Part shown: positions 7,576 to 25,899 of the stretch, piece after piece
How the letters are laid out: the number at the start of each line of letters is the position of its first letter
How positions within the stretch are numbered: position 1 is the stretch's first letter
NCBI GenBank assembly: GCA_031359775.1
Contig: JANMAL010000663.1
Location: 1-32,132 of the forward strand
Direction of reading: 5' to 3'
Source of the DNA: Blastocatellia bacterium
GTDB lineage: Bacteria > Acidobacteriota > Blastocatellia > RBC074
Length of the DNA stretch: 32,132 nucleotides
Program-made: the position numbers and the translations under genes
The notes under the pieces: generated by a model
The model's input: only the letters and a program-made list of their open reading frames with translations
Told to the model about the DNA's origin: nothing
Databases searched by the model: none

Positions 7576-7615
7576 TGGGGTTCTCAGGTTACGGAATACA
7601 GAGGAAAGAATCAGA

Positions 7616-7656: not shown

Positions 7657-7686
7657 GCAAAACTTTCTGTGTGCTCAATGGTTCAT

Positions 7687-9036
<1,350 letters not shown>

Positions 9037-9213
9037 AAGGAACTCCTTCGGAAAATGCGCCGTAGACCTCGCGCCTGCGGCAACGGGTAAATAAAGGGAC
9101 TAGCGAAAAACTTCTTCGGTGCGAATCAATTGGGTCTGACAATCCAGTAACTTTAGAAGACGCACAAAACGTTGTCAATCTGCCTGGTATGACCAGCCGC
9201 TGGATTTTGGATT

Positions 9214-9951
9214 TTAGCGGGCCGTCAGCAACGCCGCTGAATCCTGATCCAGATATACGGTTACATTTGGATGTTGGCGGAGCATCGAGGCCGGTGCCAA
9301 TGGCGAGATTTCGCCTTCCAAACAGGCTTTTACCGCTTGTGCCTTGCGCGCATCAGGAACAACACAGACAATCTCGCGCGCTTTTAGAATTTGCTGAATG
9401 GACATCGAAATCGCTTGTTTTGGCACATCGTCCAGCGTGGGAAACCAGCCCTCACCAAATTGTTGGCGGCGACAGGCATCATCTAACTGAACGACGATGT
9501 AGGGCGTTTCGATGGCGAAATCTGCAGGTGGATCATTGAACGCCAGATGCCCATTTTCGCCGATGCCAACGAACGCGACATCAATGGGTGCGGCGGCAAT
9601 CGCGGCGTTGGCCTGCGCGCAAACCTCCACCACATCACCCGCGCCATCCAACAAATGATAATTCGTAAGCCCGGTTGGTTGAATAAATCGTTCCAGCAAA
9701 TACTTGCGAAAACTTGCCGGGTGTGCGATTGACATGCCGACGTATTCATCCAGATGAAACATTTTCACTTGCGCCCAAGCAATAGCGGGCGCTTGCGTTA
9801 GCGCAGCCAGAAATTCAAACTGGGATGCGCCTGTCGCGGCGATGATACGTGCGGTGCCGGTTGCGGCGAGAGCTTGCCGAATGGCCTTGGCGGCCTGTTC
9901 GGCGGCGGCTTGTCCCAATGAAATTTTATCGTCGAAGATTTTGATATTCAT
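9214..9951 (-). CDS. nagB: Glucosamine-6-phosphate deaminase/isomerase (NagB family)
   Basis: Contains the [17 protein letters not shown] motif and overall NagB/6-phosphogluconolactonase-fold layout. The ORF track starts at GTG 9969. In-frame ATGs lie at 9960 and 9951. MNIKIFDD.. (9951) best matches the usual M-x-I-x-V/I beta1 start of NagB proteins. Confidence 0.8.
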
Positions 9952-9966
9952 AGATTTCATTTTAGC

Positions 9967-10058
9967 CACGAATTACACGAATCTTCACGGAGGAGAGGTA
10001 TGGTTTAATCGTCTTTCCCATGTGAACTTATCGTTCGTGATAATTCGTGTAATTCGTG
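9967..10058. promoter_or_regulatory. Symmetric pair of 16-nt elements (ATTCGTGTAATTCGTG in the sense orientation of each gene) flanking the nagB/nagA divergent control region
   Basis: CACGAATTACACGAAT (9967-9982) is the exact reverse complement of ATTCGTGTAATTCGTG (10043-10058). Each arm is built from 9-bp-spaced TTCGTG units, with a third degenerate unit on each side (10034-10042 TTCGTGATA; 9983-9990 complement CCGTGAAG). Confidence 0.5.
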
Positions 10059-10070
10059 ACAGATAAAAAC

Positions 10071-11042
10071 ATGCAAATTGAATTTCCCGGTTTTTTTGAT
10101 TTACAAGTCAACGGTTTTGCAGGCGTGGATTTCAACGAGCCCTGCACGCCAGCGCAATTGCAGCACGCGATTGCGGCCCTGCGCGCAACCGGCGTGACGC
10201 AATTTTTGCCGACCATCATTACTTCGTCGCGCGCACATTTTGCAAGCTGTGCGCAGGCAATCTTAAATTTTGCTGACCCGGCTATTGCGGGCATTCACAT
10301 GGAAGGCCCCTATCTTTCGCCCGTTGATGGCGCGCGCGGCGCGCATCCGCAAGCTTGTGTGATGGACGCTTCAATTGACGATTTCAAGCAGCGCCAGGAC
10401 GTCGCTGAGGGGCGCATTGTATTGGTCACACTTGCCCCTGAAGTGCCGCAGGCGTTGGCGCTGATTGAGTATCTGGTCGCCGCCAATATCAAAGTCGCTA
10501 TCGGTCATACCGCCGCCACACCGGAGCAAATTCGGGCTGCGATCCAGGCCGGAGCAACCTTGTCCACGCATCTTGGCAATGGTTGCGCAAATCTGTTGCC
10601 GCGTCATCCGAACTTTCTCTGGGAACAACTGGCCGCAGATGAACTGTTTGCGAGCTTGATTGTAGACGGACACCATTTGCCCGCCGCGACGGTGAAAGCG
10701 ATGGTGCGCGCGAAAACATTGGGAAAAACGATTTTGGTGACAGATGCAATTGCTGCTGCCGGATGCGCGCCCGGCTTATTTGAACTGGGCGGGGTGACAG
10801 TCGAATTGAGTGCCGATGGGCATGTTGCCGAGCCGGGCAAGCCCTGGCTGGCGGGATCATCACTGGCGATGAACAACGCCGTCGCGAACACCGTCCGCTT
10901 CACCGGATTGTCAATTGCCGAAGTATTGCCGCTGGCTTCGACGCAACCTGCCAATTATCTAGGTCTGGCCCCGCGCGGCACCGTCATTGCCGATTGGGAT
11001 GAAGCGAATTATTCTCTGACAGTGAAAACCGTCGTTTCGTAA
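10071..11042 (+). CDS. nagA: N-acetylglucosamine-6-phosphate deacetylase-like amidohydrolase (NagA family, short N-terminus)
   Basis: Motifs align with E. coli-type NagA: PGFFDLQVNG (QxN metal-site variant), GIHMEGPYLS, AIGHTAAT, LSTHLGNG and LVTDAIAAAG. The ORF track starts at GTG 10056. The ATG at 10071 (MQIEFPGFFDLQVNG) is my preferred start. Confidence 0.8.
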   Translation: MQIEFPGFFDLQVNGFAGVDFNEPCTPAQLQHAIAALRATGVTQFLPTIITSSRAHFASCAQAILNFADPAIAGIHMEGPYLSPVDGARGAHPQACVMDASIDDFKQRQDVAEGRIVLVTLAPEVPQALALIEYLVAANIKVAIGHTAATPEQIRAAIQAGATLSTHLGNGCANLLPRHPNFLWEQLAADELFASLIVDGHHLPAATVKAMVRAKTLGKTILVTDAIAAAGCAPGLFELGGVTVELSADGHVAEPGKPWLAGSSLAMNNAVANTVRFTGLSIAEVLPLASTQPANYLGLAPRGTVIADWDEANYSLTVKTVVS

Positions 11043-11085
11043 TTATCAGTCCAAAACAGGCACTCTGCCCGGTCGTACATCAACT

Positions 11086-12366
11086 ATGAATAAACGCCCC
11101 ATCAAACATTTGCGCTGGTACATTGCGATTCTGATTTGTTTCGCTTCGGAGCTAAATTACATGGATCGCAATACTCTCTCGGTCTTGAAAGACACCATTC
11201 AGAAAGCCTTGAAATTCGACGATAGCGGCTATGCGCTTATCACCGCCACGTTTTTATGGACTTATGCGGTGGCCTATGTAATCAGCGGTTGGGTTGTGGA
11301 TCGTCTGGGGTCGCGGCGGGGCTTTTTGGTATTTGTGACGGGCTGGTCTATTGCCAATATGCTACACGCGTTTGCGACAGGTGTTGGCAGCTTTCAATTC
11401 TTTCGCGGCCTGCTGGCAACGATGGAGCCAGCGAATTTTCCGGCGGGTATCAAAGCCGTATCCGAGTGGTTTCCGATGCGTGAGCGAGCATTGGCGGTGG
11501 GCATCTTCAACGCCGGAACTGCGCTCGGCAACACGTTGGCCGTGCCGGTGGCGGCGGCGGTCGCCTTGGCGTATGGCTGGCAATTCGCGTTTGTTTTCAC
11601 CGGCGCAATCGGATTTGTTTGGGTCGCGATTTGGTTTTTTGTCTATCGTTTGCCGCAAGATCATCCGCGCATTTCCGAAGAGGAAAAACAGCTAATTCTG
11701 GCGGGACGAGAGGAAGAGGACAAAACCGCGCACGAAAGAATTTCGCCCTGGCAATTGCTCAAGATGCCTGCGACGTGGGGCTGCGCGTTGGCGCGGCTGT
11801 TGACCGATCCGATTTCGTATTTTCTGTTTTTTTGGACGCCGAGTTATCTGCAAACAGAGCGTGGGTTTGATCTCAAGCAAGTTGGCATGTACGCGTGGAT
11901 TCCGTTTGCGGCCTTGACGCTGGGCAATTTATTTAGCGGGGCGATGCCACGTTGGTTGATTAGTCGTGGCTGGACATTGAACACCGCGCGCAAAGGCACG
12001 ATGCTCGGCGTATCGCTGGCAATGCTGGTGCTGTGCTTTGTCGTCACGCAAGCGACGACACCGGTGACAGCCGTGTTGATTTTAGCCGCAGTGATGTTTG
12101 GGCATGCCGCCTGGGGGAACATTATTCTTCCCGCCGAGGCATTTCCGCGCAATGCAGTTGGGTTCGTGACCGGCTTTGGCGGATTTCTGGGCGGCATCGC
12201 AGGGGGGATTACGCAACTGGTGATTGGCAGCGTTGTGATGACGTATGGCTATGGGCCGATTTTTGCGGTGTGTTCGGTGATGTATCTGCTGGCGCTGGCC
12301 GCCGTTCACTTTTTGATTGGTGAACTTGGCATCATCCGGCCCATAAAAGGTGTTGCCGCAGCGTAA
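11086..12366 (+). CDS. MFS transporter, ACS family, ExuT-like (hexuronate/sugar-acid transporter)
   Basis: 426-aa ORF with about 12 hydrophobic segments. LRWYIAIL.., NFPAGIKAVSEWFPMRERALAVGIFNAGTALG and YGWQFAFVFTGAIGFVWVAIWFFVYR parallel E. coli ExuT blocks as I recall them. Confidence 0.8.
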   Translation: MNKRPIKHLRWYIAILICFASELNYMDRNTLSVLKDTIQKALKFDDSGYALITATFLWTYAVAYVISGWVVDRLGSRRGFLVFVTGWSIANMLHAFATGVGSFQFFRGLLATMEPANFPAGIKAVSEWFPMRERALAVGIFNAGTALGNTLAVPVAAAVALAYGWQFAFVFTGAIGFVWVAIWFFVYRLPQDHPRISEEEKQLILAGREEEDKTAHERISPWQLLKMPATWGCALARLLTDPISYFLFFWTPSYLQTERGFDLKQVGMYAWIPFAALTLGNLFSGAMPRWLISRGWTLNTARKGTMLGVSLAMLVLCFVVTQATTPVTAVLILAAVMFGHAAWGNIILPAEAFPRNAVGFVTGFGGFLGGIAGGITQLVIGSVVMTYGYGPIFAVCSVMYLLALAAVHFLIGELGIIRPIKGVAAA

Positions 12367-12403
12367 GAGGTTAAGTTTTGCGCCGCAAGATTTGCGTGAT
12401 GTT

Positions 12404-13159
12404 TTATTTTTTAGGGCGCGCCGTCTTTGCGTTGCTTGCAATCGTTTTCTGATTGTCTTTTTCCCAAGACTTTTCCGCTGACACCAGATGCGCTGTCAGA
12501 ATTTCTTTGGCACGACGGGATTCACGCTGCCGAACGGCTTCATAAATGCGTTCGTGCCATTCGACGGCCTCTTCTTTATCTGTTGCGCGCGCAATAGATT
12601 CGCGCCGCACTTGCAGCAACAAGGCCGCGACCGTGTCCATCACGCCGCTCATGATTTTGTTGCCTGCCGCCGCTGCCAGTGCCTGATGAAAGCCCACATC
12701 GTGTTTCAAAAACTTTTCCGGGTCGTTCAGATGCTTGCGCATTCCTTCAATCTCAACGGCAATTGTTTTTAAATGCTCTGAGGTGGCGCGTTCTGCCGCC
12801 AATTCCACCAAGCCGGTTTCAATGATGCGGCGCGCTTCAAACAATTCGGCTGTTTGCGTGTTGTGAATCAGCGTCATAAATTCCATCGGCTCGGCAAAAA
12901 TTTCCGGCATGGAATCGGCAATGAAGGTGCCTGCGCCCGGCTTCGCTCGAATAATCCCCATGACGGAGAGGGCTTTTAGGGCAGTGCGCAAAGAGGGCCG
13001 CGAAATGCTGAGCATGTCGGCCAGTTCGCGCTCCGGGGGCAAACGGCTGCCCGCTTTTAATTCGCCTTGTTGGAGCAGTTCTTTGATCCGTTGAACGACC
13101 AGTTCCGTGATCCCGGAACGATCAATCGGGGCAAGCGCGCGCGAGAAATGAGTATCCAT
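12404..13159 (-). CDS. GntR-family transcriptional regulator, FadR/FCD subfamily
   Basis: 251-aa ORF. It has an N-terminal winged helix-turn-helix (LPPERELADMLSISRPSLRTALKALSVMGIIRAKPGAGTFI) and an all-helical FCD-like C-terminal domain (..FHQALAAAAGN..). Confidence 0.85.
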   Translation of the reverse strand: MDTHFSRALAPIDRSGITELVVQRIKELLQQGELKAGSRLPPERELADMLSISRPSLRTALKALSVMGIIRAKPGAGTFIADSMPEIFAEPMEFMTLIHNTQTAELFEARRIIETGLVELAAERATSEHLKTIAVEIEGMRKHLNDPEKFLKHDVGFHQALAAAAGNKIMSGVMDTVAALLLQVRRESIARATDKEEAVEWHERIYEAVRQRESRRAKEILTAHLVSAEKSWEKDNQKTIASNAKTARPKK

Positions 13160-13320
13160 AAAATCCTAGCTGATGCATTGGTGGGGCAAATCCTGCGGTT
13201 CGCCGTTTGGTAAGACTGTCGAACTGTAAAACCGGCAAGTGGTCTTGTCAATGTAACTTCCACAATTCCAGTTTTTCGGACAGGCGTTCAAGATTTTGGA
13301 TAGCGGCCGTAAACATGTCG

Positions 13321-13344
13321 GCGGATTCAAATTTATGAATCCGC
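13321..13344. promoter_or_regulatory. Palindrome GCGGATTCA-AATTTA-TGAATCCGC in the GntR/TonB-receptor intergenic region (candidate operator)
   Basis: 9-bp perfect arms around a 6-bp AT centre. It lies in a 321-bp non-coding region between the divergent regulator and receptor genes. Confidence 0.35.
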
Positions 13345-13480
13345 CCGATGTTATAGGTGGGGCAAATGGATATGCGACAACATTCAGATCGTCGCATATT
13401 CCTGGGTTAATGGAATGCAAGTTGCTTCCATTTAGCGCATTGCATCAACCTTAATCTATAAAACTGCAAAAGGAGCTCCT

Positions 13481-14170
13481 ATGACCCAGTCCAAACTTTC
13501 CCATTTATTTTTTACCCTGTTGGTGCTGGTTGCCGGGTGCGCACTGAACGCCGTCGCACAAACCGCTACAGGAAGGATTGTGGGGACAGTACAGGATGTG
13601 GCGGGAGCAACGATTCCCAATGCCGCTGTCAGTGCCATCAATGAAGGGACGCAGGTTTCTTACAAGACCACCACCAATAATTTCGGAGGCTATAATTTTG
13701 AAGCCTTACAAGCAGGTTCTTATACCATTGTGACGGAGATTAACGGCTTCAAGAAATACTCATCCGCCAAAAATGTGCTGACGGCAAATGACACGCTGAC
13801 CTTACGGGTAACCTTAGAGACAGGCGCGATTAGCGAGACGGTGCAGGTCGAAGGCACCTACGAACGTGTGCAAACCAATCAATCGGGTAACATCGGTGCG
13901 GTTGTCACCGCCAAGAGTTTAGTTGATTTGCCGATTGTTGGACGCAACCCGCTTTCGCTGATTGCTTTCCAGCCCGGCGTCGCGACGGGCGCGAATCCCG
14001 GCGGCGGAACGCACATTTTTGGTGCGCGGGACCGGGCCGTAAATCTGACGATGGATGGCATTGATTCAAACGAAGCTTCTGCCGGCCCTGCTCGGTTGTT
14101 CTTGAGCACCAGCAACCCCGCGAGCATTAATGCCCACAGTATTCAGTTGGGTGCCAAGATAAATTTCTAA
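13481..14170 (+). CDS. Carboxypeptidase-regulatory-like domain protein; apparent internally deleted TonB-dependent receptor (possible pseudogene/remnant)
   Basis: 229-aa ORF with AAGGAG plus ATG and a signal peptide. Residues 1-200 are collinear with the N-terminus of the downstream 1260-aa receptor (CarboxypepD_reg, then LPIVGRNPLSLIAFQPGV, then ARDRAVNLTMDGIDSNEAS). It then jumps to ..STSNPASINAHSIQLGAKINF*, which resembles the receptor's extreme C-terminus (..STGSPSIL...ARVIQFAMKLKF*). Confidence 0.6.
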   Translation: MTQSKLSHLFFTLLVLVAGCALNAVAQTATGRIVGTVQDVAGATIPNAAVSAINEGTQVSYKTTTNNFGGYNFEALQAGSYTIVTEINGFKKYSSAKNVLTANDTLTLRVTLETGAISETVQVEGTYERVQTNQSGNIGAVVTAKSLVDLPIVGRNPLSLIAFQPGVATGANPGGGTHIFGARDRAVNLTMDGIDSNEASAGPARLFLSTSNPASINAHSIQLGAKINF

Positions 14171-14368
14171 GCGGTGACGGGCTTTTCCGTAATTTTTGCC
14201 GTGAGGGATATTGCCTAGCAGGAGATGAGTTTTGCCTTTTGCCCGGCACCTTGCTTTTAAGCTCTCGGTTCTCTATACAAACATTTGAGTATCGTCGAAA
14301 CTTTGCTTTATTTACAATTTGCAACCAACCTTAATGGCCGTCTTCTGCCATCCCCTTCAGGAGGGAAT

Positions 14369-17300
14369 ATGAAACAATCTATTCGATTCTTTGGAAAATT
14401 TCTTTTGCTGATGTTCATCGCTGGGGGCGCCTTCGCCCAAACCAGTACCTCGCGCATTACCGGGGCGGTGACGGATGCTTCTGGCGCAGTGGTGCCGGGC
14501 GCGAAAGTGACCGTCAAAAACGAAGCGACGGGCGTGTCATTTACCCAGATGACAACCAATGCGGGCGTCTATTCCTTCCCGTCGCTGAACCCCGGGGTTT
14601 ACACTATCACGGCGGAGGTTCAGGGCTTCAAAACCATTACTAAAACAGGCAACGTCTTGGAAATCAACACGCCGCTGACGGTAGACGTGGCGCTTGAAAT
14701 TGGGCAAATGACCGATGTCGTAACGGTTGCGGGTGGCTATGAACGATTGCAAACCACGAATGCTACAATTGGTAATGTGGTTGAGCAGAAGGCGATTGAA
14801 GCGCTGCCGCTCAATGGACGCAATCCGCTCACGCTCATTACCTTAGAACCAGGAGTCACACAGCGTTCTGCTGGGGGCGCAGGGTCAGGAATTCACGTCA
14901 ATGGTTCGCGGGATCGTGCGTTTAATGTGACTATTGATGGTATTGAGGCAAATGAATCTACTGTCCCCAATCCCGTTTCCAATTTGTACCGCATTAATCC
15001 TGATAACATCCAGGAGTACAAAGTAACGACCAATAATGCGACAGCAGAAGAAGGGCGCAATAGCGGCGCTTCGATTTCGATTGCCACGCGTAGCGGCACG
15101 AACGAGTTTCACGGGACATTATTTGAATATGCGCGCAACACAGCGCTGAATGCGAAAGGGTTTTTCAGCAATGCGCGTAATCAACCGAAGAATGACATCA
15201 AGCTGCATCAATATGGCGTGGAAGTTGGTGGCCCGATTTTCAAAGGCAAAACCTTCTTTTTCGCTAGTTATCAGGGGCAGCGCGTCAAATTCACGCAGCC
15301 CATTGACCAAACGTTTGGTTTTCCGACGATCTATACGCCGACAGCCCTATCCGGCAAGTTTCGCTATCTCAAAGGGGGCGTTAACGCACCAACTTTAGTG
15401 AATCGCCAAACGGGCGAATTGGCGGCGGGGGTGCGTAATTGTACCAGCGCTACCGATACGGGTTGCATCGCCACCTATGACATTTTTGCCAATGATCCAC
15501 GCAAGATTGGCATTGATCCCATTGTGGCCAAGCTGTTCAATTCGTATCCCAAACCGAATGATTATTCGACGGGGGATGGATTGAATACGGCGACTTACGC
15601 GTGGAATCCGCCGACCGAAAATCAAGGGCCGAATTACGCGATTCGCATTGATCACACGATCAATCAAAATAACTCTATTTTTGGACGCTGGCTCTACGCC
15701 GATCAAAACACTATCCAGGGTGATCCGCTCAATGGTCGTCCGCAAGTGTTTCCAGGCTTCGCGCCGCTCGGCGAAGTGTATCGCGCAACTAAAAATTTAG
15801 CGCTTGGCTGGCGCTCAACAATCACACCAACTCTCAATAATGAATTTACGGTAGGCTTTGCGCGCTTCAGTTTTTTGTTTACGCAAGGCGAAGCGAATCC
15901 TAATTTCCCTAATATTCCTCCGTATTCCTTTAATCTGGCGACTGTGCCATTTATCAACACGCCGCGTACTGCGCGGGCCGTTACGACCCCGCAATTTATG
16001 GACAATGTTACGTGGGTCAGAGACGCGCACGTGTTTCGTGGTGGAGTCAACGTACGGTTTTATCAGCATAACGATCAGCGCGGTCAACCCGGCGGCGTCA
16101 ACGTCACGCCAACACTTTCGTTTAGTTCTACCATCCTGCCGCCAACTATTGCGGGCGAAGCCGGACTCGGAATTAATTCTAATGACTTAACTCGCTTGCG
16201 TAGCTCCGTTAACGATTTATTGGGGATTGCCGTGCGACTCACGCAACCCTTCATTGGCGATCTGAATGGCGATGCGTTTTTGCCCTTCCAGAAAGATGGC
16301 AAGGTCTCGCTCTTCAACGTTGGCACCCGTTTGAAACAATACAATCTTTTCCTTCAGGATGATTGGAAGGCACGGTCAAATTTATCTCTCAGTTACGGAG
16401 TACGAATGGAATTGAACACACCGCCGAGAGAAGCGGGAGGGCGTGTGTTTGTGCCCAACCAGGCGATTGACGGATCGCAAGGCTTGGTGACGTTTGGGAA
16501 AGGACGGTCTTTTTATAAAGACGACCACGCACTGGCTTTCGGCCCCCGTATTGGTATTGCCTGGAGTCCTGGCAAAAGTGGTAAGTTCGTGGTGCGCACG
16601 GGCTATGGTATTGCCTATGATCCGGTTTCTTCATTTCAGGTAACAGCGGTGATGGGACGTCCGCCAGGACTTATCAGCACCTGTACTTCCACCGTCGGGG
16701 TTGCCCCACAAGTTGGTTGTCAGGGCTTACCCGCCGCTGGCACACGCCTGTCTGAGAATTTCCCTCTGGCGCTGGCCGCTCCTACTATCAAGCCGTCATC
16801 TTTCCAGACGCTGCCCAATGTATTGCTCAACAATGCGCCGCCCGTGGCAGTCTTCGATCCAGACTTACAAATGCCCACAGTGCATCAGTGGAATTTGAAT
16901 TTGCAGTATGAATTGCCGGGTGGATTCGTGGCCTCCGGCGCTTACATTGGACGGCGCGGCACACATCTAATGCGCGCCTATGACATCAACCAAATTGATG
17001 CCAAGCCGATCCTGGGTGACTTTTTGAATATGCAGTACAACATTAAAACTGCGACCAACTGTAACCCGGACGGCGTCACACAACGCAATACTGCGGCGGG
17101 CCAACCGGCCTGTAGCGGCGGCAGGTTAATCTCGTTCGTGAATTATCCAACGACTGTCCCCAATAGCCCGAAGGGGCCGCTGACGCAGGCATTTGTGAAT
17201 AGCGGAATTACCGTTACCGATCTCGATCAAAATGGCGCGGGCAACTTCGCCGGACGGATTGAGCAGACGACGCTGGCCTTGAAATTGCGCCCGAATCAAC

Positions 17301-18151
17301 AGTTTGGCGTCATTACTTATATGGATGCAGGTGGCGATTCGTATTATCACTCCGCCCAATTCACGTTGCGCAAACGATTCGAGAAAGGGCTGTTGTTCGG
17401 CCTTGCCTATACGTTTGGTAAATCCATTGACAACCAATCCGTAGACCCGGTGGGCGCGGCTTCAGGCGGCGGTTTAAGTACCACCAATTCACGGACCCCA
17501 ACTGATGCGCGTGATTGGAAAGGTGAGCGAGCACGGTCAGATTTTGACCGCACGCATGTGCTGACCTCGACTGCTGTTTATGAATTGCCCTTTGGGAAAG
17601 GTAAAGCGTTAGACCCCAACAATGGGTTTCTGAACGCGATCTTTGGCGGCTGGGCGATGAACGGCATTTACACCAAGATGTCGGGTGAGCCATTCACTGT
17701 GACGAGTGGCGTGCGGACAGCCAATTTTTCGCACGTTTCGCGCGCCGATATTGTGACCCCTATTACCGCACAATTGCAGGATAAAGCCGGCGTAGCAGGG
17801 CCAGTTGTTTTTCCTGATGCCTCTGCTTTTAGGAGTCCAGCTCCTGGGTCGAATGGAGCAGGGCGAAATATTTTTGTCGCACCTGGTTACTGGAATCTTG
17901 ATCTTGGTTTCAGCAAGACGTTTCAAATCACCGAACGCGTCAAATTAGATTTCCGCACCGAGATGTTCAATGCGCTGAATCACACCAACTTTGATAACCC
18001 GCGCGATGCCTCAACAGGATCGCCGAGTATTCTCTCTCCGGTTTTCGGGCAAACCTGCTGTGCGGCAGTTGCTCCACCTACGACACAGACAATTATCCAA
18101 ACAGGTGAGGCTGCGCGTGTCATTCAATTCGCAATGAAGTTGAAGTTTTAA
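14369..18151 (+). CDS. TonB-dependent outer-membrane receptor with N-terminal carboxypeptidase-regulatory-like domain (acidobacterial type)
   Basis: GGAGGG precedes ATG 14369. It has a signal peptide (KFLLLMFIAGGAFAQ), a CarboxypepD_reg-like block (ITGAVTDASGAVVPGAKVTVKNEATG..GVYTITAEVQGFK), a plug-like block (LPLNGRNPLTLITLEPGV), a ~1000-aa beta-rich body and a terminal IQFAMKLKF. The ORF-track TTG at 14285 adds 28 non-signal residues and is unlikely to be the start. Confidence 0.85.
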   Translation: MKQSIRFFGKFLLLMFIAGGAFAQTSTSRITGAVTDASGAVVPGAKVTVKNEATGVSFTQMTTNAGVYSFPSLNPGVYTITAEVQGFKTITKTGNVLEINTPLTVDVALEIGQMTDVVTVAGGYERLQTTNATIGNVVEQKAIEALPLNGRNPLTLITLEPGVTQRSAGGAGSGIHVNGSRDRAFNVTIDGIEANESTVPNPVSNLYRINPDNIQEYKVTTNNATAEEGRNSGASISIATRSGTNEFHGTLFEYARNTALNAKGFFSNARNQPKNDIKLHQYGVEVGGPIFKGKTFFFASYQGQRVKFTQPIDQTFGFPTIYTPTALSGKFRYLKGGVNAPTLVNRQTGELAAGVRNCTSATDTGCIATYDIFANDPRKIGIDPIVAKLFNSYPKPNDYSTGDGLNTATYAWNPPTENQGPNYAIRIDHTINQNNSIFGRWLYADQNTIQGDPLNGRPQVFPGFAPLGEVYRATKNLALGWRSTITPTLNNEFTVGFARFSFLFTQGEANPNFPNIPPYSFNLATVPFINTPRTARAVTTPQFMDNVTWVRDAHVFRGGVNVRFYQHNDQRGQPGGVNVTPTLSFSSTILPPTIAGEAGLGINSNDLTRLRSSVNDLLGIAVRLTQPFIGDLNGDAFLPFQKDGKVSLFNVGTRLKQYNLFLQDDWKARSNLSLSYGVRMELNTPPREAGGRVFVPNQAIDGSQGLVTFGKGRSFYKDDHALAFGPRIGIAWSPGKSGKFVVRTGYGIAYDPVSSFQVTAVMGRPPGLISTCTSTVGVAPQVGCQGLPAAGTRLSENFPLALAAPTIKPSSFQTLPNVLLNNAPPVAVFDPDLQMPTVHQWNLNLQYELPGGFVASGAYIGRRGTHLMRAYDINQIDAKPILGDFLNMQYNIKTATNCNPDGVTQRNTAAGQPACSGGRLISFVNYPTTVPNSPKGPLTQAFVNSGITVTDLDQNGAGNFAGRIEQTTLALKLRPNQQFGVITYMDAGGDSYYHSAQFTLRKRFEKGLLFGLAYTFGKSIDNQSVDPVGAASGGGLSTTNSRTPTDARDWKGERARSDFDRTHVLTSTAVYELPFGKGKALDPNNGFLNAIFGGWAMNGIYTKMSGEPFTVTSGVRTANFSHVSRADIVTPITAQLQDKAGVAGPVVFPDASAFRSPAPGSNGAGRNIFVAPGYWNLDLGFSKTFQITERVKLDFRTEMFNALNHTNFDNPRDASTGSPSILSPVFGQTCCAAVAPPTTQTIIQTGEAARVIQFAMKLKF

Positions 18152-18173: not shown

Positions 18174-18210
18174 AAGGCTGAGTGAGAACATCGCTCAGCC
18201 TTTCTTATTT
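18174..18210 (+). terminator. Rho-independent terminator after the TonB-dependent receptor
   Basis: 12-bp stem AAGGCTGAGTGA (18174-18185) / TCGCTCAGCCTT (18191-18202) with one G-U pair and a 5-nt loop, followed by TCTTATTT. Confidence 0.6.
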
Positions 18211-18217
18211 CGGGCGC

Positions 18218-18246
18218 TTGACAGCACACCCGCGGATAGGGATGAT
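18218..18246 (+). promoter_or_regulatory. Candidate sigma70-like promoter for the ATP-grasp operon
   Basis: TTGACA (18218-18223), a 17-nt spacer, then GATGAT (18241-18246; 4/6 to TATAAT including A2 and T6). It lies just downstream of the terminator and about 120 nt upstream of ATG 18366. Confidence 0.3.
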
Positions 18247-18365
18247 AGCCCGCGATACGAATCATCAACTTACTTACGTCCACCAACTAATTCATCATCG
18301 TCTGCTACGCCCCATAATAATCTGGCATTTTTTTGCCTACAGTTTCGGTAGTTCGGGATTTTCTT

Positions 18366-19823
18366 ATGCCTGAAGATAGCAATGCTCCTGTCTTAACCAG
18401 CAATTATCAGTTAAGCCAATTCTTTGACGAGATGTTTGCCGCGCCGGGCGAACCGCGCTTGCATTATCAAACGTTACACGAACGGTTTTGTGCGCTCAGT
18501 GTCAGTGATATGAACGAAAAGACGCGCGCCGCTGATATTTCGTTCCTCTATCAAGGCATCACGTTTACGGTCTACAGCCAGGATGAAGGCATTGAGCGTA
18601 TCTTTCCCTTTGACCTGATTCCGCGCATCATTCCCCGGCGCGAGTGGGATTTACTCGAACGCGGTCTGACGCAGCGGGTGCTGGCGCTGAATCAATTTTT
18701 GCATGATGTCTACCACGATCAGCGCATCATCAAGGACAAACGAATCCCGCCGGAACTCGTGTTTGGCGCCAGCAATTTTCGCCGCGAGATGATCGGTATA
18801 ACCGCGCCGCGCCAAATCTACGCGCATATTATCGGCACGGATCTGATTCGGGATCATGAGGGCAATTATTATGTGCTGGAGGATAACCTGCGCTCGCCCT
18901 CCGGCGTCAGCTACATGCTGGAAAATCGGCAGGCGATGAAGCGCTCGTTTCCCCGCTTATTTGAGCAATATGGCGTTGCGCCGATAGACCATTACCCGCA
19001 GGAATTGTTGGCGATGTTGCGTTCCGTTGCACCGCGCGAAGTGCCGGAGCCGACGGTCGTGCTGCTGACGCCCGGCGTGTATAACTCGGCCTACTTCGAG
19101 CATTCATTTCTGGCGCGGCAAATGGGCATCGAAATTGTCGAAGGCCGCGATCTGGTTTGTCACGACAATCGCGTTTACACCCGCACCACGCATGGCTTGC
19201 AAAGCGTTGACGTGATTTATCGTCGGATAGACGATGACTTTCTGGATCCGCTGGCGTTTAAGCAGAAAAGCCTGCTTGGTGTGCCGGGCTTACTCAACGC
19301 CTACCGCGCCGGGAACATCACGCTGGCCAACGCGATTGGCACTGGCGTGGCCGATGACAAGGCGGTGTATGCGTACGTGCCGGAAATGATTCGTTACTAT
19401 TTGGGCGAAGAGCCAATCCTGAATAACGTGCCGACTTATCTGGCAATCAACGACACCGACCGCGATTACATTTTGGCGAATTTAGACAAGCTGGTGGTGA
19501 AGGCGGTCAATGAAAGCGGTGGTTATGGCATGTTAATTGGCATGCACGCCAGCCAGGCGGAGCGCGCTGCATTCGCCGAAAAAATCAAAGCCAATCCGCG
19601 CAACTTCATTGCGCAACCGACCATTTCGCTAAGCCGTCATCCGACCTATATCGAAGGCGAATTGCGCGGCTGTCACGTGGATTTGCGGCCTTACATTTTG
19701 TGCGGCGAAACGATTAAGCTGGTGCCGGGCGGATTAACGCGCGTAGCTTTGCGCGCCGGGTCGCTGGTGGTGAATTCATCGCAAGGTGGCGGCAGTAAGG
19801 ATACTTGGGTTTTGGTAGATTGA
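18366..19823 (+). CDS. Circularly permuted type-2 ATP-grasp protein (COG2308-type amidoligase)
   Basis: About 485 aa from ATG 18366 (the ORF-track TTG 18333 is less likely). The length and sequence character match my recollection of the family that precedes alpha-E and transglutaminase genes ([104 protein letters not shown]). Confidence 0.85.
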
Positions 19824-19826
19824 AGT

Positions 19827-20180
19827 ATGACGGGAATTAATTACAACGGCAGAACTTTCCGGTCTTTTTCCAACACTGCCGAAGGCGAGGTGGATGCGCG
19901 TACAACGTTTCGCTATCGCCAAATGGGCGATATTGTGTGGGCGGAATATGTGGGCGGACGCATTCGGTTGGGGCAATTGCTCGGATTGGTGTTGCCGGAT
20001 GGAAAATTGGAATTCCGCTATCAGCATGTTAATGAGACTGGTGAATTGATGACGGGGCTTTGTCTTTCGACCCCGGAAGTATTGCCGGATGGACGTTTGC
20101 GGCTGCATGAAGCGTGGCAATGGACGGGTGGAGAGCGCGTCAGTGGCGAGTCTATCGTAGAGGAAATTCTGATTCTGTAG
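19827..20180 (+). CDS. Small soluble beta-rich conserved hypothetical protein (family often auto-annotated 'N-acetylglutamate synthase'; function unknown)
   Basis: 117-aa ORF whose ATG lies 3 nt after the ATP-grasp stop. The pattern NYNGRTFR..SN...GEV...T.F.Y.Q.GD.VWAEY.GG.I..G.L.G......G.L.FRY.HVNE.GELMTG.C.S.PE.LPDGR.RLHE.WQW resembles a widespread ~110-aa family I recall. This is not verified. Confidence 0.6.
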   Translation: MTGINYNGRTFRSFSNTAEGEVDARTTFRYRQMGDIVWAEYVGGRIRLGQLLGLVLPDGKLEFRYQHVNETGELMTGLCLSTPEVLPDGRLRLHEAWQWTGGERVSGESIVEEILIL

Positions 20181-20236
20181 CTCCTTCACCGACGCTGTGG
20201 GTTTGATTTTAGAGACGATCTTTTTGAGCAAACGAC

Positions 20237-20548
20237 ATGGGCGTAATCGAACTATTATTTATTCTCGTTATCATTCCGTACCGCGTTTGGCGGCTGGCCA
20301 AAGAACGCGGCGAGAGCGCGCTGAAATGGAGTCTGGCCGCCATTGGGGCGTGGATTGGGGCGGAGCTTCTCATTGGAACTCTCGTCGGTATTTTGTGGGT
20401 TCTGCTGGCTCGGTTAGGCTTTACCCCCAGAGGGAACGCTGTCAATGTTTTTTACGTGCTTTTTTATTTGTTGTTGATCGCTGCCGCAGCAACGAGCGCA
20501 ACCCTGGTGATACGGCAACTACGCAAAAAGCCGATTACACAATCCTGA
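20237..20548 (+). CDS. Small integral membrane protein (~3 TM), hypothetical
   Basis: 103-aa ORF with an ATG start. It has three hydrophobic stretches ([13 protein letters not shown]; [25 protein letters not shown]; [22 protein letters not shown]) and a basic C-terminus. It is co-directional with and tightly packed inside the operon. Confidence 0.55.
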
Positions 20549-20576
20549 AGAAAAGGGACAAACGCAAAATTATCTT

Positions 20577-21563
20577 ATGCTGTCACGAGTTGCTGATTCA
20601 CTGTTTTGGATGTCACGTTATATTGAGCGCGCCGAAGATTTGACGCGCTTATTGGCGGTTAATTTTCACTCCCTGCTGGATGCCGGAAAGGTTGATTCAG
20701 AGCAGGGTTGGCAACCGCTGATTGCCATGACCTATGATGAAAAGCGCTTTGACAAGCATTACCCCACTTGTACCGCGCTCAACGTCGTGGATTTTATGCT
20801 TTGGAATCAAGCCAATCCGAACGCCGTCATCTGGTGCATCACGATGGCGCGCGAAAATGCCCGCAGCGTGCGCGAGCAGATCAGCAAAGAGATGTGGGAA
20901 TACTTGAACCGTCTCTACTTCCGTGTGAAAGAAGCCGACCGCGCAGCCGTGTCGCGTTCTTTGCAGGAGTTTTTCTATAACCTGCGCGATGGCTCGCAGG
21001 CGTTTCAGGGCATCACCAATGAAACGATGACACACGGCGATGCCTACCAATTCATTCAAATCGGCAAGCATCTGGAACGCGCCGAAAAAACCACGCGCAT
21101 CCTTGATCTCAAATATGAAAACGTCACGCAATTGCCGGAAGGCTCGCCCGACGAGGCGTTACAATTGATGGCGATGCTGAAATCGTGCAGCGCGTTTGAG
21201 CCGTTTCGCAAAGAATACACGTCGCAATTAAGCGCCGAAGCGATTGTCGAGTATCTGCTGCTGAATCGTGAATTTCCGCGCGCCGTCGCGTTTGGTTTAC
21301 ATCGTTGTTTACAGGCTGTGAATGCGATTTCCGGCACGAATGATGGCGGCAAGATGAATCACCCCCAACGCAGCCTGGGACGCCTGGTATCAGAGTTGGA
21401 GTATCTGGATATTCAAGACATTTTGGGCGTCCGCCTGCGCACGTATCTGGCGCAACTTTTACTACGCCTTAATCAAGCTGGCGAAGACATCACGCGGACT
21501 TACTTCAATACGCAGGTAATTTTGCCTGAATTACATCCCCAACAGGCACAGCAGCAGCAGTAG
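20577..21563 (+). CDS. Alpha-E domain protein (COG2307-type)
   Basis: 328-aa ORF. The N-terminus [21 protein letters not shown] and the internal [18 protein letters not shown] are the hallmark alpha-E helices. It ends with a tandem TAG TAG. Confidence 0.85.
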
Positions 21564-21645
21564 TAGGTGTTGGGTGTTAGGTGTTGGGGAAAATCCAATA
21601 CCTGACACCCGATCCTAACACCTGGCACCTGATACCTAACACCTA
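21564..21645 (+). repeat. Repeat-built stem-loop (GGTGTTRGG units versus complementary CCTRACACC units) between the alpha-E and transglutaminase genes
   Basis: TAGGTGTTGGGTGTTAGGTGTTGGG (21564-21588) pairs over all 25 positions (19 Watson-Crick plus 6 G-U in + strand RNA) with CCTGGCACCTGATACCTAACACCTA (21621-21645). The 32-nt loop holds further complementary units (CCTGACACCC 21601-21610, CCTAACA 21614-21620). Confidence 0.6.
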
Positions 21646-21648
21646 TTT

Positions 21649-22446
21649 ATGAGACTTCGCATCGAACACGTCACCACTTTCAGCTACGATTTACCCATTA
21701 GTGAAGCCTATACCGAAATGCGGTTGGCCCCGATGGACATTGGCGGACAACGCCGTACGGCGTTTCGCTTACGCACCGAACCGAACGGGGAAGTGACGCG
21801 CTATCAGGATCGCTACCAAAACGAAGTGCATTACTTCGATGTACTCCAATCGCATCAACAAGTGCAGGTCACAGTCTTAAGCGAAGTCCTCACAGCGGAA
21901 AAATTTGTGGATGAACAAATGACTTTGTCGCCGCTGGATCAGTTCGATTATTTGACTTTGACCCCCTATGCCTCGGGGCACGAACTGATTCACGATCTGG
22001 CCGAAGCGAATGTCATTGTAGGCAACAAAATGGCGACCGCCTATGCTTTGATGACCGCTGTACATGAAGCGATTCGCTACGAGCGCGGCGCGACCAGCGT
22101 CAAAACCACTGCCGATGAAGCGTTGCAATTGGGCAAAGGCGTTTGTCAGGATTATGCCCACGTGATGTTGGCGGCCTGTCGCATCAGCGGCTTACCGGCG
22201 CGTTATGTAAGTGGTTATCTGTACAGCCCGAATGCGCCGGAAATGGCTTCGCACGCCTGGGTGGATGTGTTCGTAACGGAATATGGTTGGCGTGCGCTTG
22301 ACCCAACGCATAACTGCTTACAAGATGAAAAGTATGTGCGGGTGGCGACGGGGCGGGATTATGCTGATGTGTCGCCGACGCGGGGAATTTATAAAGGCAA
22401 TGCGAAGGAAAAAATGGAAGTGGCTGTGCAGGTCATTGCCATTTGA
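21649..22446 (+). CDS. Transglutaminase-like cysteine peptidase family protein (Bact_transglu_N + transglutaminase core)
   Basis: 265-aa ORF. Its N-terminus [28 protein letters not shown] is typical of Bact_transglu_N. A catalytic-triad-like Cys ([10 protein letters not shown]), His (ASHAWVDVF) and Asp (RALDPTH) are present. Confidence 0.85.
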
Positions 22447-22447: not shown

Positions 22448-23194
22448 TCAGGTCACTGCGCCGCCATCTACCGTAACGACCTCACCATTCATATAGCTGT
22501 TGCGGTCTGACACCATAAATGCGGCGAATTCCGCCAATTCTTCCGGGTGTCCACGCCGTCCTTTGGCGCACCAAAGTTCGTGAAGCTGCAAAAACTTTTC
22601 GGGCAGCGCATCCGATAAATCCGTATCGAAAATCCCCGCCGCAATCGCGTTGACGGTTATTCCAAAGGCAGACGCCTCGCGTGAAAGGCATTTCGTGAAG
22701 CCAATAACAGCAGCTTTAGAGGTCGCGTAATGCACGGAAGTTGGCAGAGAACGGATAGCGCCAATACTGCTCATATTCAGAATCATCCCGGCGCGTTGGC
22801 GAATCATGTATTTGTACACGGGCTTTGTGACATTAAAGATGCCATTGACGTTCGTATCAATCACCTCGTCCCAGGCTTTTTCCGTTGTGGTGGCAAACAT
22901 ATCGCCGCGATTGATGGCCGCGTTGTTCACAAGAATATCAATGCGTCCGAATTCTTCGTGAATTTGCTTCACCATTTTGATGATGCCAGGGCGATCTGTA
23001 ACAGAAGTTTTGAATGAAAAACCCTGTCGTCCGAAGGAGCGAATCTTGTCTACGGTGGCTGCGGCACGCTCATCGCTGACATTGTAATTAAAGGCGATGT
23101 CGGCACCTTCCCGCGCAAAAACTTCGCACAGTGCTCGCCCAATGCCGCGCGAGCCGCCGGTGATGATTGCTTTTTTTCCTTCAAGTAAACCCAT
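22448..23194 (-). CDS. SDR-family oxidoreductase, FabG-like (3-oxoacyl reductase-type)
   Basis: Contains TGGSRGIG (TGxxxGIG), LVNNAAI (NNAG) and YATSKAA (YxxxK). ATG 23194 (MGLLEGKKAIITGG) is preferred over the ORF-track TTG 23212. Confidence 0.85.
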   Translation of the reverse strand: MGLLEGKKAIITGGSRGIGRALCEVFAREGADIAFNYNVSDERAAATVDKIRSFGRQGFSFKTSVTDRPGIIKMVKQIHEEFGRIDILVNNAAINRGDMFATTTEKAWDEVIDTNVNGIFNVTKPVYKYMIRQRAGMILNMSSIGAIRSLPTSVHYATSKAAVIGFTKCLSREASAFGITVNAIAAGIFDTDLSDALPEKFLQLHELWCAKGRRGHPEELAEFAAFMVSDRNSYMNGEVVTVDGGAVT

Positions 23195-23232
23195 AGTTAT
23201 TTTGTAGCTCAAGTGCGACCAAATATCACATG

Positions 23233-24438
23233 TTACGGTAAATGAATTGCGGGGGCTGGAGTTGCGGGGCTGTCGGTGCTTTGATTGTCCATCTTGCTCA
23301 TAATTTCGTGGACAATGCGGCGCGTTGCATCAGGAATCGCAATTTTGGCAGAAGCCAGGCGCAGTGCCGCATGCTCCGCCGGGCTGGCAATCAACCGCCG
23401 CACAATCGGTACTACATCAGAGGCCCGTTCCAGCAAAAGACCCGCCTTATTGCGTAGCAGCATATTTGCGGTTTGCAATTCCTGCGGCATGGGAGGCGTC
23501 GTGACGTCCGCAATAATTGGTAAGCGTGAAGCCAATGCTTCAAACGTTGTCAGTCCGCCAAGTTTGGAGATCATCACATCCGCCGCGCGCATTAACTTTT
23601 CCATTGCGTCTGTGTAACCGATGATTTTAATTGGAAAGGGCGAGCGCTTAGCCATCCGGGCCACATCGTTTTGCAGTTCTACATTACGCCCGGCCAGAAA
23701 TACCGCCTGCGTATTTTTAAGCTTGTCTCCCTGGTCAATCATTTGCTCGAAGATGTGGGGAATGTTCCCGCCGCCAATCCAGCCTGCGTTGACAAAAACC
23801 GTGAATTTCTCAGGATCAAGCCCCAGTTCCAGGCGGGCAGCAGCGCGCTCTTCTTCGTTTTCGTACTGGAATTTAGGATGAATGGGAATGCCGCAGATTT
23901 TGATCTTTTCAGGCTGGATGCCGTAATCAATCAATTGCTGTTGCGCCTCTTGCGTTGCTACCAAATATAAACTCACGTCCTCGCACGCCCAGCCGCGCCA
24001 AAAGCCGTAACAAGGATCTGTTACCACCGTAACCAGAGGAATCGTCTCCAGGAGGCCGAGTTCTTTCATCACCCGCGCAAATAAATGCTGTGTCATCGGG
24101 TGAACAGAGATCACAACTTGCGGACAGAAACGCTCAAACAATTGCCGCAGATAATTCACGCCCAAGCGATAAATTAGATTCGATTCGTTCGGTTTGAAGC
24201 GTTCAATCGCCGCATAATAATACTTCATCAATGGCTGATGATTGCGCAGCAGATAGTTGTAAAACTCGGCCAGTTTCTGCGCCAGGAAATGCGATTCTTC
24301 AATCGCCCGCACGACATTCACCAGACAGCCAGGCGCCGAGAAGCGCTTGAGCCCATCGGCAATCGCTGCCGCTGCACTGGTATGTCCTCCACCGGTTGCT
24401 GAAGTGATAATGAGGAACTTTTTAGCGCGCTCGTCCAT
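23233..24438 (-). CDS. GT-B glycosyltransferase of the MGDG-synthase/UgtP (GT28-like) family, putative diacylglycerol glycosyltransferase
   Basis: 401-aa ORF. FLIITSATGGGHTSAAAAIADGL, PQVVISVHP, LVTVVTDPC..W, VSLYLVAT and IKICGIPIHPKF follow the block order of B. subtilis UgtP / MGDG synthases as I recall them. The C-terminal half is Glyco_tran_28_C-like (ADVMISKLGGLTTFEALA). Confidence 0.8.
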   Translation of the reverse strand: MDERAKKFLIITSATGGGHTSAAAAIADGLKRFSAPGCLVNVVRAIEESHFLAQKLAEFYNYLLRNHQPLMKYYYAAIERFKPNESNLIYRLGVNYLRQLFERFCPQVVISVHPMTQHLFARVMKELGLLETIPLVTVVTDPCYGFWRGWACEDVSLYLVATQEAQQQLIDYGIQPEKIKICGIPIHPKFQYENEEERAAARLELGLDPEKFTVFVNAGWIGGGNIPHIFEQMIDQGDKLKNTQAVFLAGRNVELQNDVARMAKRSPFPIKIIGYTDAMEKLMRAADVMISKLGGLTTFEALASRLPIIADVTTPPMPQELQTANMLLRNKAGLLLERASDVVPIVRRLIASPAEHAALRLASAKIAIPDATRRIVHEIMSKMDNQSTDSPATPAPAIHLP

Positions 24439-24463
24439 TAGGAATTGAATGTTGAGGCTGGAG

Positions 24464-25615
24464 TTAATTGACGCTTGCCTCGACCATCGGCCCGCTCAGT
24501 TCGCCCTTATGCGATTTCTTCAATTGATATTCCAGCTTTTTGATTTGGATCAAATGCTTGGGATTGAAGGCGAGCGAGGGGTAGTAGCAATTCGATTCGT
24601 GTGTGCAATGACAACCGCTGCGGGCATGCTGGCGACGCGCTTCCATGGCGGGAGAGTTCCAAAGCTTCCAAAAGTTCCAATCGTAATCACGCAGATTGGC
24701 GACCGGATCAAGGTTTTCGCAACTCGACACCGTGCCTTCATCATAAATCACGCCGCCCGTATTACCTGCGTGACACTGCAACTGTGCTTTCTTTTCGGTC
24801 TCTGTTTTGGCGATGACTTCGTGCATATGAATGTCAATCGCAGCTTTGAAATAGCCGTTTTTGCCCGAATAGTGATTTTTGATAAGAGCTTTGCGCGAGT
24901 CATCGTCAATCAAGGCCGAAAGCTGGCGATAGCGGCTGATGTCAATGTCCAATTCCTTCGCCGCCGCAGCGGGCGGGCGAATGTAATTGACATTGATTTT
25001 GTCAGGTTTTAGCTCATAGCGCAGGAAGTCATACCATTCGAAAATGCGATCCTGATTCGAATTCATAAAGCAAGTACAGGTTTGCACATCCAGTTGCGGA
25101 TGTTGCTTTTTGATTTCCTGTAATTGGCGTGCCGTGTCAATCGCCTTATCCCAACTACCCACTTTGCCGCGAATTTTTTCGTGGTCTTCTTTCAGGCCAT
25201 CAATGCCGAGCGCAACGGTCACATTCAGTTTCGGGCATTCGTCCAGAATACGCGAAACATCCGGCATGATGCGTTGCTGAATGCCACCGTTTGACATCAG
25301 ATACACCGATTCAAGCTGATTGTTTTCGTAAAAAGCGCGCACGATTTCGGGCAGGTCTTTGCGCGTAAATGGTTCACCGCCTGCGATGATGAGCACTGGC
25401 AATTTGCCGCCCAATGTTTCGCTGATGCGTTGCAGATTTTCCGTCGTAAGCTGGTTTTTCTTGCGCGACTTATCGTTCAACTCCTCAGTAAAGAAGCAAT
25501 GAACGCAGCGCATATCGCAAACCGAAGTGACGAGAATGTTGAGCACAACAGGTGAAGTCACCCCACCCGTCAACACGCGAGCATATTTTTTAAGTAGTTC
25601 AAATCCGTAATCCAT
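24464..25615 (-). CDS. Radical SAM enzyme with C-terminal SPASM/twitch-like cysteine cluster
   Basis: Contains CDMRCVHC (CxxxCxxC), IIAGGEPF (the GGE motif), and the C-terminal CHAGNTGGVIYDEGTVSSC followed by CHCTHESNC. ATG 25615 (MDYGF..) has AGGA 7 nt upstream and is preferred over the ORF-track TTG 25645. Confidence 0.85.
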   Translation of the reverse strand: MDYGFELLKKYARVLTGGVTSPVVLNILVTSVCDMRCVHCFFTEELNDKSRKKNQLTTENLQRISETLGGKLPVLIIAGGEPFTRKDLPEIVRAFYENNQLESVYLMSNGGIQQRIMPDVSRILDECPKLNVTVALGIDGLKEDHEKIRGKVGSWDKAIDTARQLQEIKKQHPQLDVQTCTCFMNSNQDRIFEWYDFLRYELKPDKINVNYIRPPAAAAKELDIDISRYRQLSALIDDDSRKALIKNHYSGKNGYFKAAIDIHMHEVIAKTETEKKAQLQCHAGNTGGVIYDEGTVSSCENLDPVANLRDYDWNFWKLWNSPAMEARRQHARSGCHCTHESNCYYPSLAFNPKHLIQIKKLEYQLKKSHKGELSGPMVEASVN

Positions 25616-25899
25616 CAAATTTCCTAACAGGGACAAACCGCTCAAATTATGTAAAGTCCAAGCGACTGCTTATTAAGCTGTTTTTGCGTGCCAATGTCAA
25701 ACGCTCATAAATACTTGGTTTGCTTTGCTGGAAAAAAGTGTTAACCTCCCTCATCGGTTTGACCGAGATAATTGAAACAGGCAAGACAAAGCGGGAGTGA
25801 ACAAAGGGTTCCTAAACACTTTCGTGCTGCCGCAGGGACATTAGGGGAATGTCTACGCTGCCTTACCAAGCGCTATTTCGATAAGGAGACCTGCTCAGC

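Follow-up and report, generated by a model that had tools for sequence, protein, structure and literature searches.

Two Probable Lineage-Specific Additions to a cpATP-Grasp, Alpha-E and Transglutaminase-like Operon in a Blastocatellia Bacterium

We have studied a five-gene operon in the genome of a Blastocatellia bacterium (GenBank assembly GCA_031359775.1, contig JANMAL010000663.1). The stretch analyzed, which we call the window, is 32,132 nucleotides long, and the operon lies at positions 18366 to 22446 on its forward strand. Three of the genes encode a circularly permuted ATP-grasp (cpATP-grasp) ligase, an alpha-E protein and a transglutaminase-like protein, which together form a known triad. 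The other two are small and are wedged between the ligase and alpha-E genes; they encode a 117-amino acid β-barrel and a 103-amino acid membrane protein. The reading we favor, with reasonable rather than strong confidence, is that this is a canonical triad without an Anbu peptidase that carries two lineage-specific add-ons, which the system in general does not need. We regard the small genes as add-ons rather than as conserved components since almost every other triad does without them.

In outline, the gene for an avidin-like barrel would have been inserted once, directly behind the ligase gene, in the ancestor of a narrow clade, and the gene for the small membrane protein lies behind the barrel gene in some members of that clade. 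Both small genes are real; each may be a passenger or an accessory factor, and neither can be the general substrate of the triad.

RESULTS

The Operon Contains an Intact Triad

The genes of the operon, with the basis of each assignment in brackets, are as follows.

18366 to 19823, forward strand: cpATP-grasp ligase (COG2308 type), 485 amino acids from the ATG (Pfam)
19827 to 20180, forward strand: Avidin_like (PF26421) barrel, 117 amino acids, lineage-specific insert (homologues, AlphaFold2 model, substitution rates)
20237 to 20548, forward strand: small membrane protein, 103 amino acids, patchy lineage-specific insert (profile search, substitution rates)
20577 to 21563, forward strand: alpha-E protein (COG2307 type), 328 amino acids (Pfam, ER motifs)
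21649 to 22446, forward strand: transglutaminase-like protein of Cys-peptidase fold (COG1305 type), 265 amino acids, last gene of the operon (Pfam, motifs)

The first-pass annotation of the window had proposed a triad of these three families within a set of five closely packed, co-directional open reading frames (ORFs). The coordinates are confirmed, as are all four gaps between the consecutive forward-strand ORFs, of 3, 56, 28 and 85 nt. Pfam profile searches bear out the assignments. The ligase, whose homologues likewise have 485 amino acids, matches CP_ATPgrasp_2 (PF14403, E = 2e-169) and CP_ATPgrasp_1 (PF04174, E = 1.4e-152) over the full length of the profiles. The product of the alpha-E gene matches Alpha-E (PF04168, E = 7.9e-94) and has both of the ER motifs, YIERAE at residue 15 and HLERAE at residue 165. 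The last protein of the operon contains Bact_transglu_N (PF08379, E = 1.9e-18) and Transglut_core (PF01841, E = 1.6e-24), together with the motifs GVCQDY, SHAWV and LDPTH, the presumed sites of the Cys, His and Asp residues of transglutaminase-like proteins. No match to any of the five proteins was found in NCBIfam or among the PADLOC defence models.

The window proteins are 95-99% identical to those of a Blastocatellia metagenome-assembled genome (MAG; locus L010). Measured against orthologs, the ratio of nonsynonymous to synonymous substitution (dN/dS) is 0.015-0.06 for the ligase gene and 0.01-0.10 for the triad genes together. Downstream the operon is bounded by a convergent gene for a short-chain dehydrogenase/reductase (SDR) at 22448-23212 on the reverse strand.

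Are the two small ORFs genes at all? The space between the ligase and alpha-E genes might be non-coding, or might hold an antisense gene; it is overlapped by reverse-strand ORFs of 151 and 78 amino acids (19776-20231 and 20209-20445), and the 103-amino acid protein belongs to no Pfam family. We find this scarcely credible. The forward frames have dN/dS values of 0.07-0.10 (barrel) and ~0.2 (membrane protein) relative to orthologs. The barrel has a family hundreds strong and an AlphaFold2 (AF2) model with a predicted local distance difference test score (pLDDT) of 94, and the membrane protein has homologues that keep its invariant motifs even at 35-42% identity. The non-coding interpretation is effectively refuted.

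Most Related Triads Lack the Inserted Genes

The distribution of the inserts was examined from both directions. For the barrel, we inspected the best 80 genome loci, with one genome per species and 10 kb on either side. The barrel gene lies between the cpATP-grasp and alpha-E genes in five of these (L010-L014), which are mostly labeled Blastocatellia and have a barrel identity of at least 80%. At the other 75 there is no ATP-grasp or alpha-E gene within 10 kb. These triad-free barrels are 53-66% identical to that of the window, and come from Pyrinomonadaceae, Cytophagales, Chloroflexota, Rhodothermales and others. We sought a conserved functional neighbor of the free-standing barrels and rejected the idea, finding just clade-specific synteny with housekeeping-type genes. 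Judged by eye from ORF translations, the neighbors resemble recX, alaS and truB at the Pyrinomonadaceae-type loci, and are agmatine-deiminase-like and SurA-like in Cytophagales. No second barrel locus from the five in-operon assemblies appears among the best 80 loci, which is weak evidence against a free-standing copy in those genomes. Two contigs of a Chloroflexota MAG (JBCCSO01; L020 and L032) each carry an avidin-like gene, i.e., two copies of the family in one genome. Blastocatellia- or Acidobacteria-type genes are found at three loci titled Heliobacteriaceae or Heliomicrobium (L014, L053 and L063), probably a quirk of MAG labeling.

The triads were sampled as 80 related metagenomic loci whose ligases are 63-84% identical to that of the window. 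Just one of these contains the barrel (L090), and it is the closest, with a ligase identity of 84%; the other 79 (ligase 63-79%) are without the inserts. In 66 other loci with a detectable alpha-E gene, this begins 3-188 nt after the ligase gene, except at three that contain different inserts. At L113 a gene for a 23S_rRNA_IVP four-helix protein (6430-6864) separates the ligase and alpha-E genes, while L138 (6440-8941) and L147 (3315-5735) have an α/β-hydrolase and a nucleoside hydrolase (IU_nuc_hydro) at that position. These interrupted triads have the same core of ligase followed by alpha-E, but the inserts differ, and none includes the barrel or the membrane protein. Other variations include a phosphofructokinase gene directly after alpha-E in several triads (e.g., L144 and L150), preceding the transglutaminase-like gene where that is present, and a transglutaminase-DUF2126 fusion in L136 and L141. 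The triad cassette repeatedly tolerates unrelated inserted genes; unrelated genes stand inside triads of other lineages, and the operon therefore accepts passengers.

The first-pass annotation had singled out the wedged genes as prime candidates for the acceptor or substrate of the triad. As a general claim this is not supported, given their absence from 79 of the 80 related triads. The small genes are in large part the sporadic neighbors that would speak against such a role: most barrel loci are free of the triad, and the membrane-protein gene is patchy even where the barrel is present (see below).

The Inserted Operons Form a Single Clade

Further operons bearing the insert were found at L170/171, L172/173 and L174/175, with barrel identities of 60-68% and ligase identities of 83-86%. 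Neighbor-joining trees were calculated for the barrel and the ligase. In both, all the insert-bearing operons fall into a single clade in which L090 is basal, and this clade is nested among triads without the insert. Because both trees place the operons in one nested clade, the phylogeny indicates that the barrel would have been inserted a single time, with vertical descent thereafter. The members of the clade are probably Blastocatellia.

The Barrel Belongs to a Large Family of Avidin-like Fold

The 117-amino acid protein had been described from the sequence as soluble and rich in β-structure, and this description is upheld. In the AF2 model the protein is all-β, an eight-stranded up-and-down barrel (pLDDT 94.4, predicted template modeling score 0.86), and no hydrophobic signal-like segment is present at its N terminus. 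Assignment to PF26421 (Avidin_like) rests on the precomputed PF26421 matches of homologues with 53-95% identity and on the invariant columns of the family. The copy of Pfam used for our domain scan was without the PF26421 model, and for this reason the scan returned no Pfam match for the protein. The copies within triads, including that of the window, retain 33 of 33 invariant columns of the family alignment. Since it keeps every residue that is invariant in the family, the barrel most likely retains the generic role of that family.

Comparison of the model with the PDB using Foldseek gave zebavidin, avidin, AVR4 and agroavidin as the top fold matches, with template modeling scores of 0.55-0.67. 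Sequence identity to the avidins is 9-17%, and the best Foldseek E-value is 7e-4; no Pfam family, Avidin included, matched the protein at E ≤ 0.1. The avidin likeness of the barrel is a resemblance of fold, not membership of the biotin-binding family. About half of putative bacterial avidins have a signal peptide (PMC8033661), unlike the window barrel, in which no such segment was seen. The sole PDB sequence match to the barrel profile, YwiB (1r0u), had an E-value of 0.065 and was too weak to use.

At least 583 species genomes encode a relative of the barrel. An exhaustive profile search gave 1227 representatives at 50% identity with E ≤ 0.001, 659 of them with E ≤ 1e-10. About 63 of the best 150 family representatives are long forms, which join the barrel to a second domain, most often a GNAT acetyltransferase (15 of the 63). 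Other partners include DUF3291, ACT_7, Cupin_2, DinB_2, S-adenosylmethionine (SAM) methyltransferases, RNase H, Asp/Glu racemase, Flavodoxin_2 and AdoMet decarboxylase. One representative in the fusion set (P0147, of P0147-P0294) is a tandem double barrel. Several databases give members of PF26421 the name "n-acetylglutamate synthase," and the GNAT fusions probably explain this misleading label. Taken as a family, the PF26421 barrel has the pattern of a promiscuous accessory module, most plausibly one that would bind small molecules.

The window barrel is thus unexceptional for PF26421 in size, in its eight strands and in its 53-95% identity to other members. Where it differs is in its location. 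Nearly all members are free-standing or are fused to GNAT or other enzymes, and among the PF26421 loci sampled this clade alone has the gene inside a cpATP-grasp operon.

The Membrane-Protein Gene Is Patchy

The prediction of about three transmembrane segments in the 103-amino acid protein holds, as three hydrophobic segments are present. It has no Pfam family; its hits to ABC2_membrane (E = 0.015 and 0.079) fell short of the cut-offs, and we discounted them as an effect of composition. Two charged motifs are conserved, LAKERxESxLKWS and VIRQLRKKP, in which the most conserved residues of the protein are R24, E26, K30 and W31, and L95, K97, K98 and P99. By the positive-inside rule these charged segments would be cytoplasmic.

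A profile search with this protein returned 26 clusters only. Within the clade the gene is present in the window, L010, L012, L001, L014, L170 and L174, and is absent from L007, L013, L011, L172/173 and L090. The copies in the L170/L174 subclade are 40-42% identical to that of the window (42% for L170). The gene also occurs outside any cassette, between methyltransferase and GT2 glycosyltransferase genes at L177, and among unrelated small genes at L176.

The lineages without the membrane gene share a further feature. All of them, including the basal L090, with the exception of L172/173, have the sequence CTTTTGCCTTTTGAT in the spacer that separates the barrel gene from alpha-E (L007 8408-8422, L011 4617-4737, L013 10408-10422 and L090 6839-6853); the L011 copy is arranged as a long inverted repeat. 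These spacers accordingly look homologous to one another, and ancestral. On that view the patchiness of the membrane gene would not simply be the outcome of three independent deletions. Exchange of alleles within the clade is possible. A history in which the gene was gained late and then lost twice was dropped, in view of the 40-42% identity of the L170/L174 copies and the shared spacer motif.

Might the Inserts Serve the Ligase in This Lineage?

Several observations weigh against treating the inserts as mere additions. The barrel has been kept in every sampled operon of the clade, despite saturation of synonymous sites (dS > 1.5), and throughout the clade it starts 0-3 nt after the stop codon of the ligase gene. 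The five-gene block is intact in three chromosomal contexts, with a TonB-dependent-receptor-like gene, with RelA, SurA and ABC-F genes, or with a gene for glyceraldehyde-3-phosphate dehydrogenase upstream. The in-triad barrels have substitutions of their own (R25, R29, Q50, G53, E70, L80 and C101), and nine clade-specific positions in all when those of the C-terminal tail EEIL[V/I/F]L are included; this tail is strictly conserved in nine of nine in-triad sequences. Lastly GNAT, the commonest fusion partner of the barrel, forms amide bonds, as do ATP-grasp ligases. All of this would fit a genuine partnership of barrel and ligase confined to the lineage.

Such a partnership could take the form of an accessory function, in which the barrel would bind and present, or sequester, the small-molecule substrate or product of the ligase, and the membrane protein, where present, would use its conserved charged motifs to hold the soluble components at the inner membrane. 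The tight spacing, the retention of the barrel in all sampled members in different genomic contexts, and the clade-specific substitutions and tail would all be explained, and the commonest fusion partners of the barrel, above all the amide-forming GNATs, are modifiers of small molecules. In addition, conservation in the membrane protein is highest in its two charged segments, which would face the cytoplasm. Yet 79 of 80 related triads manage without either gene, the barrel family is overwhelmingly unlinked to triads, and some members of the clade do without the membrane gene, which is also found beside unrelated genes. Moreover, retention in place is to be expected of any useful inserted gene, and hence does not discriminate. 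We look on an accessory role as possible but doubtful.

A more specific proposal is that the barrel is an acceptor or carrier that the ATP-grasp ligase tags with an amino acid or peptide, for example at its acidic and hydrophobic C terminus, and that the transglutaminase-like protein removes the tag. RimK, an ATP-grasp ligase, acts on the C terminus of ribosomal protein S6, so there is a precedent. The position of the barrel gene immediately behind that of the ligase fits, as do the invariance of E112 and E113 and of the EEIL[V/I/F]L tail in the clade. The glutamate pair, however, is found unchanged throughout the family, the 75 free-standing copies among them, and lies in the last β-strand of the model, so that it looks structural. 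Triads in general are without the barrel protein, and its occurrence as a domain of many unrelated enzymes is better suited to a binding module. We judge tagging of the barrel to be decidedly improbable.

The Absence of Anbu Is Ordinary

The absence of an Anbu-like gene from the window had been pointed out in the first-pass annotation. The absence itself is correct: no proteasome or Anbu domain was found in the 20 scanned window ORFs of at least 189 amino acids outside the cassette. It is not a peculiarity, since none of 34 relatives with at least 2.5 kb of sequence after alpha-E had a recurrent gene of Anbu size or a match to the proteasome family, and COG2308 is known to occur in genomes without Anbu (Valas and Bourne, 2008; PMC3235984). 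The absence of Anbu is therefore ordinary among the relatives of this operon.

Elements Upstream of and within the Operon

The annotation had treated the five genes as one transcription unit, placing a terminator and a promoter-like box ahead of them. Both were located, in agreement with the anatomy of a single operon. The elements recognized outside the coding sequences are as follows.

18174 to 18212, forward strand: intrinsic-terminator-like hairpin ending the upstream TonB-dependent-receptor-like gene (12-bp stem, 6 GC pairs, T-rich tail)
18218 to 18246, forward strand: promoter-like box TTGACA-17-GATGAT (10 of 12 matches; putative promoter function)
18263 to 18290, forward strand: conserved 28-nt leader block CATCAACTTACTTACGTCCACCAACTAA (near-invariant in the window, L010, L012, L007 and L014)
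21562 to 21647, forward strand: hairpin with a 27-bp stem, filling the spacer that separates alpha-E from the transglutaminase-like gene (−41.9 kcal/mol, z = −6.15)

The terminator-like hairpin proper spans 18174-18202, with the T-rich tail behind it, and its sequence is also present in L010, L012 and L007. Both hexamers of the promoter-like box are conserved in the window and, like the leader block, in L010, L012, L007 and L014, four relatives with a common upstream context; the number of promoter-like matches in the region is not above that in shuffled sequences. The five genes are probably co-transcribed from this conserved box. The leader block lies downstream of the box and is near-invariant although synonymous sites in the genes have diverged; it is a candidate operator or leader RNA element. 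Neither in the leader nor across the window was there a match to Rfam, at the gathering threshold or at E ≤ 1.

The repeat unit of the spacer hairpin, GGTGTTAGGTGTT, occupies the same spacer in L007, L010, L011 and L013. The possibility that it is a dispersed repeat was rejected, as the unit is found nowhere else in the window. The hairpin may be an intra-operon element of processing, attenuation or stability.

Neighboring Loci in the Window

Directly upstream of the operon (10056-18151) are genes for an amidohydrolase, a major facilitator superfamily (MFS) transporter, a GntR/FadR-type regulator (reverse strand), a small CarboxypepD_reg protein and a 1288-amino acid Plug/OMP_b-brl_4 protein resembling TonB-dependent receptors. 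At L004, L007 and L172/173 all or part of this block is likewise syntenic beside the operon. Since a terminator separates the block from the operon, it is probably an independent locus for nutrient uptake.

The convergent genes at 22448-25645 (reverse strand) encode the SDR, an MGDG_synth-type glycosyltransferase and a radical-SAM protein; L001 and L007 retain this cluster behind the operon, with an additional M48 peptidase gene in L001. They may constitute a unit for the modification of lipids or glycolipids. Further upstream (4309-9969) is a sugar-acid and oxidoreductase cluster, comprising galactarate/altronate dehydratase, DUF6807, a GFO_IDH_MocA oxidoreductase with a twin-arginine (TAT) signal, and a protein of the glucosamine-6-phosphate isomerase/6-phosphogluconolactonase family. 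This cluster is interrupted by a gene for a Uma2-family putative endonuclease at 5907-6503.

DISCUSSION

The triad was described in 2008-2009, and was predicted to be a system of peptide synthesis or protein tagging (PMC3235984; Iyer 2009, as reported in PMC5666114 and PMC6376114). With the core of the "Anbu operon" (PMC3235984) our operon has in common the three domain families, their order and their orientation on one strand, intact catalytic motifs, and the predicted chemistry of amide ligation with a Cys-peptidase-like partner. It differs from that core in the two extra genes between ligase and alpha-E and in the conserved 27-bp hairpin preceding the transglutaminase-like gene. Unlike the four-gene Anbu operon, and like the relatives sampled, it has no Anbu gene.

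That the substrate and product of the triad were experimentally undefined had been stated in the first-pass annotation, and this accords with the literature; the chemistry is described as undefined by Fuchs (2017; PMC5666114) and by Piasecka (2018; PMC6376114). For the ATP-grasp protein of Yersinia, hydrolysis of ATP, seen as release of orthophosphate, is the only activity shown, and the experiments gave neither peptidase activity of Anbu nor a stable complex (PMC6376114). Our search turned up no work published in 2019 or later in which Anbu and ATP-grasp are treated together. Rv2567 and Rv2411c are presumably mycobacterial relatives of the ligase. Both were negative for the synthesis of γ-aminobutyric acid (GABA)-trehalose (2026 preprint). 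Rv2569c (PMC11081392) was considered as a characterized homolog and not used; the paper never mentions a transglutaminase fold.

How might the products of the operon act? From what is known of the families, the ATP-grasp protein would convert a carboxylate into an activated acyl-phosphate and join this to an amine, with alpha-E as its partner, and the transglutaminase-like protein would use its Cys, His and Asp to hydrolyze or transfer an amide or isopeptide bond. The barrel would bind a small molecule in its interior, and would be co-expressed with the ligase either as a passenger or as a loosely coupled accessory.

An alternative to our preferred reading of a canonical triad with lineage-specific additions is that the ligase of this clade has gained the barrel as a dedicated partner, either a carrier for its small-molecule substrate or product or an acceptor modified at the EEIL[V/I/F]L tail, and that the membrane protein localizes the machinery at the membrane. 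We think this unlikely. If it were true, however, the ligand or adduct bound by the barrel would offer a first experimental handle on the product of the triad.

That an operon should acquire an insertion in one lineage will not surprise a specialist. The triad is nevertheless widespread and has been known since 2008-2009, and the present analysis excludes the wedged genes as the general missing component of the system, which guards against over-interpretation of their position. It marks out, in addition, a clean and monophyletic variant with five genes, whose probable ligand-binding barrel begins 0-3 nt behind the stop codon of the ligase. Should the link between the two be functional, the barrel would be a cheap bait for the ligand.

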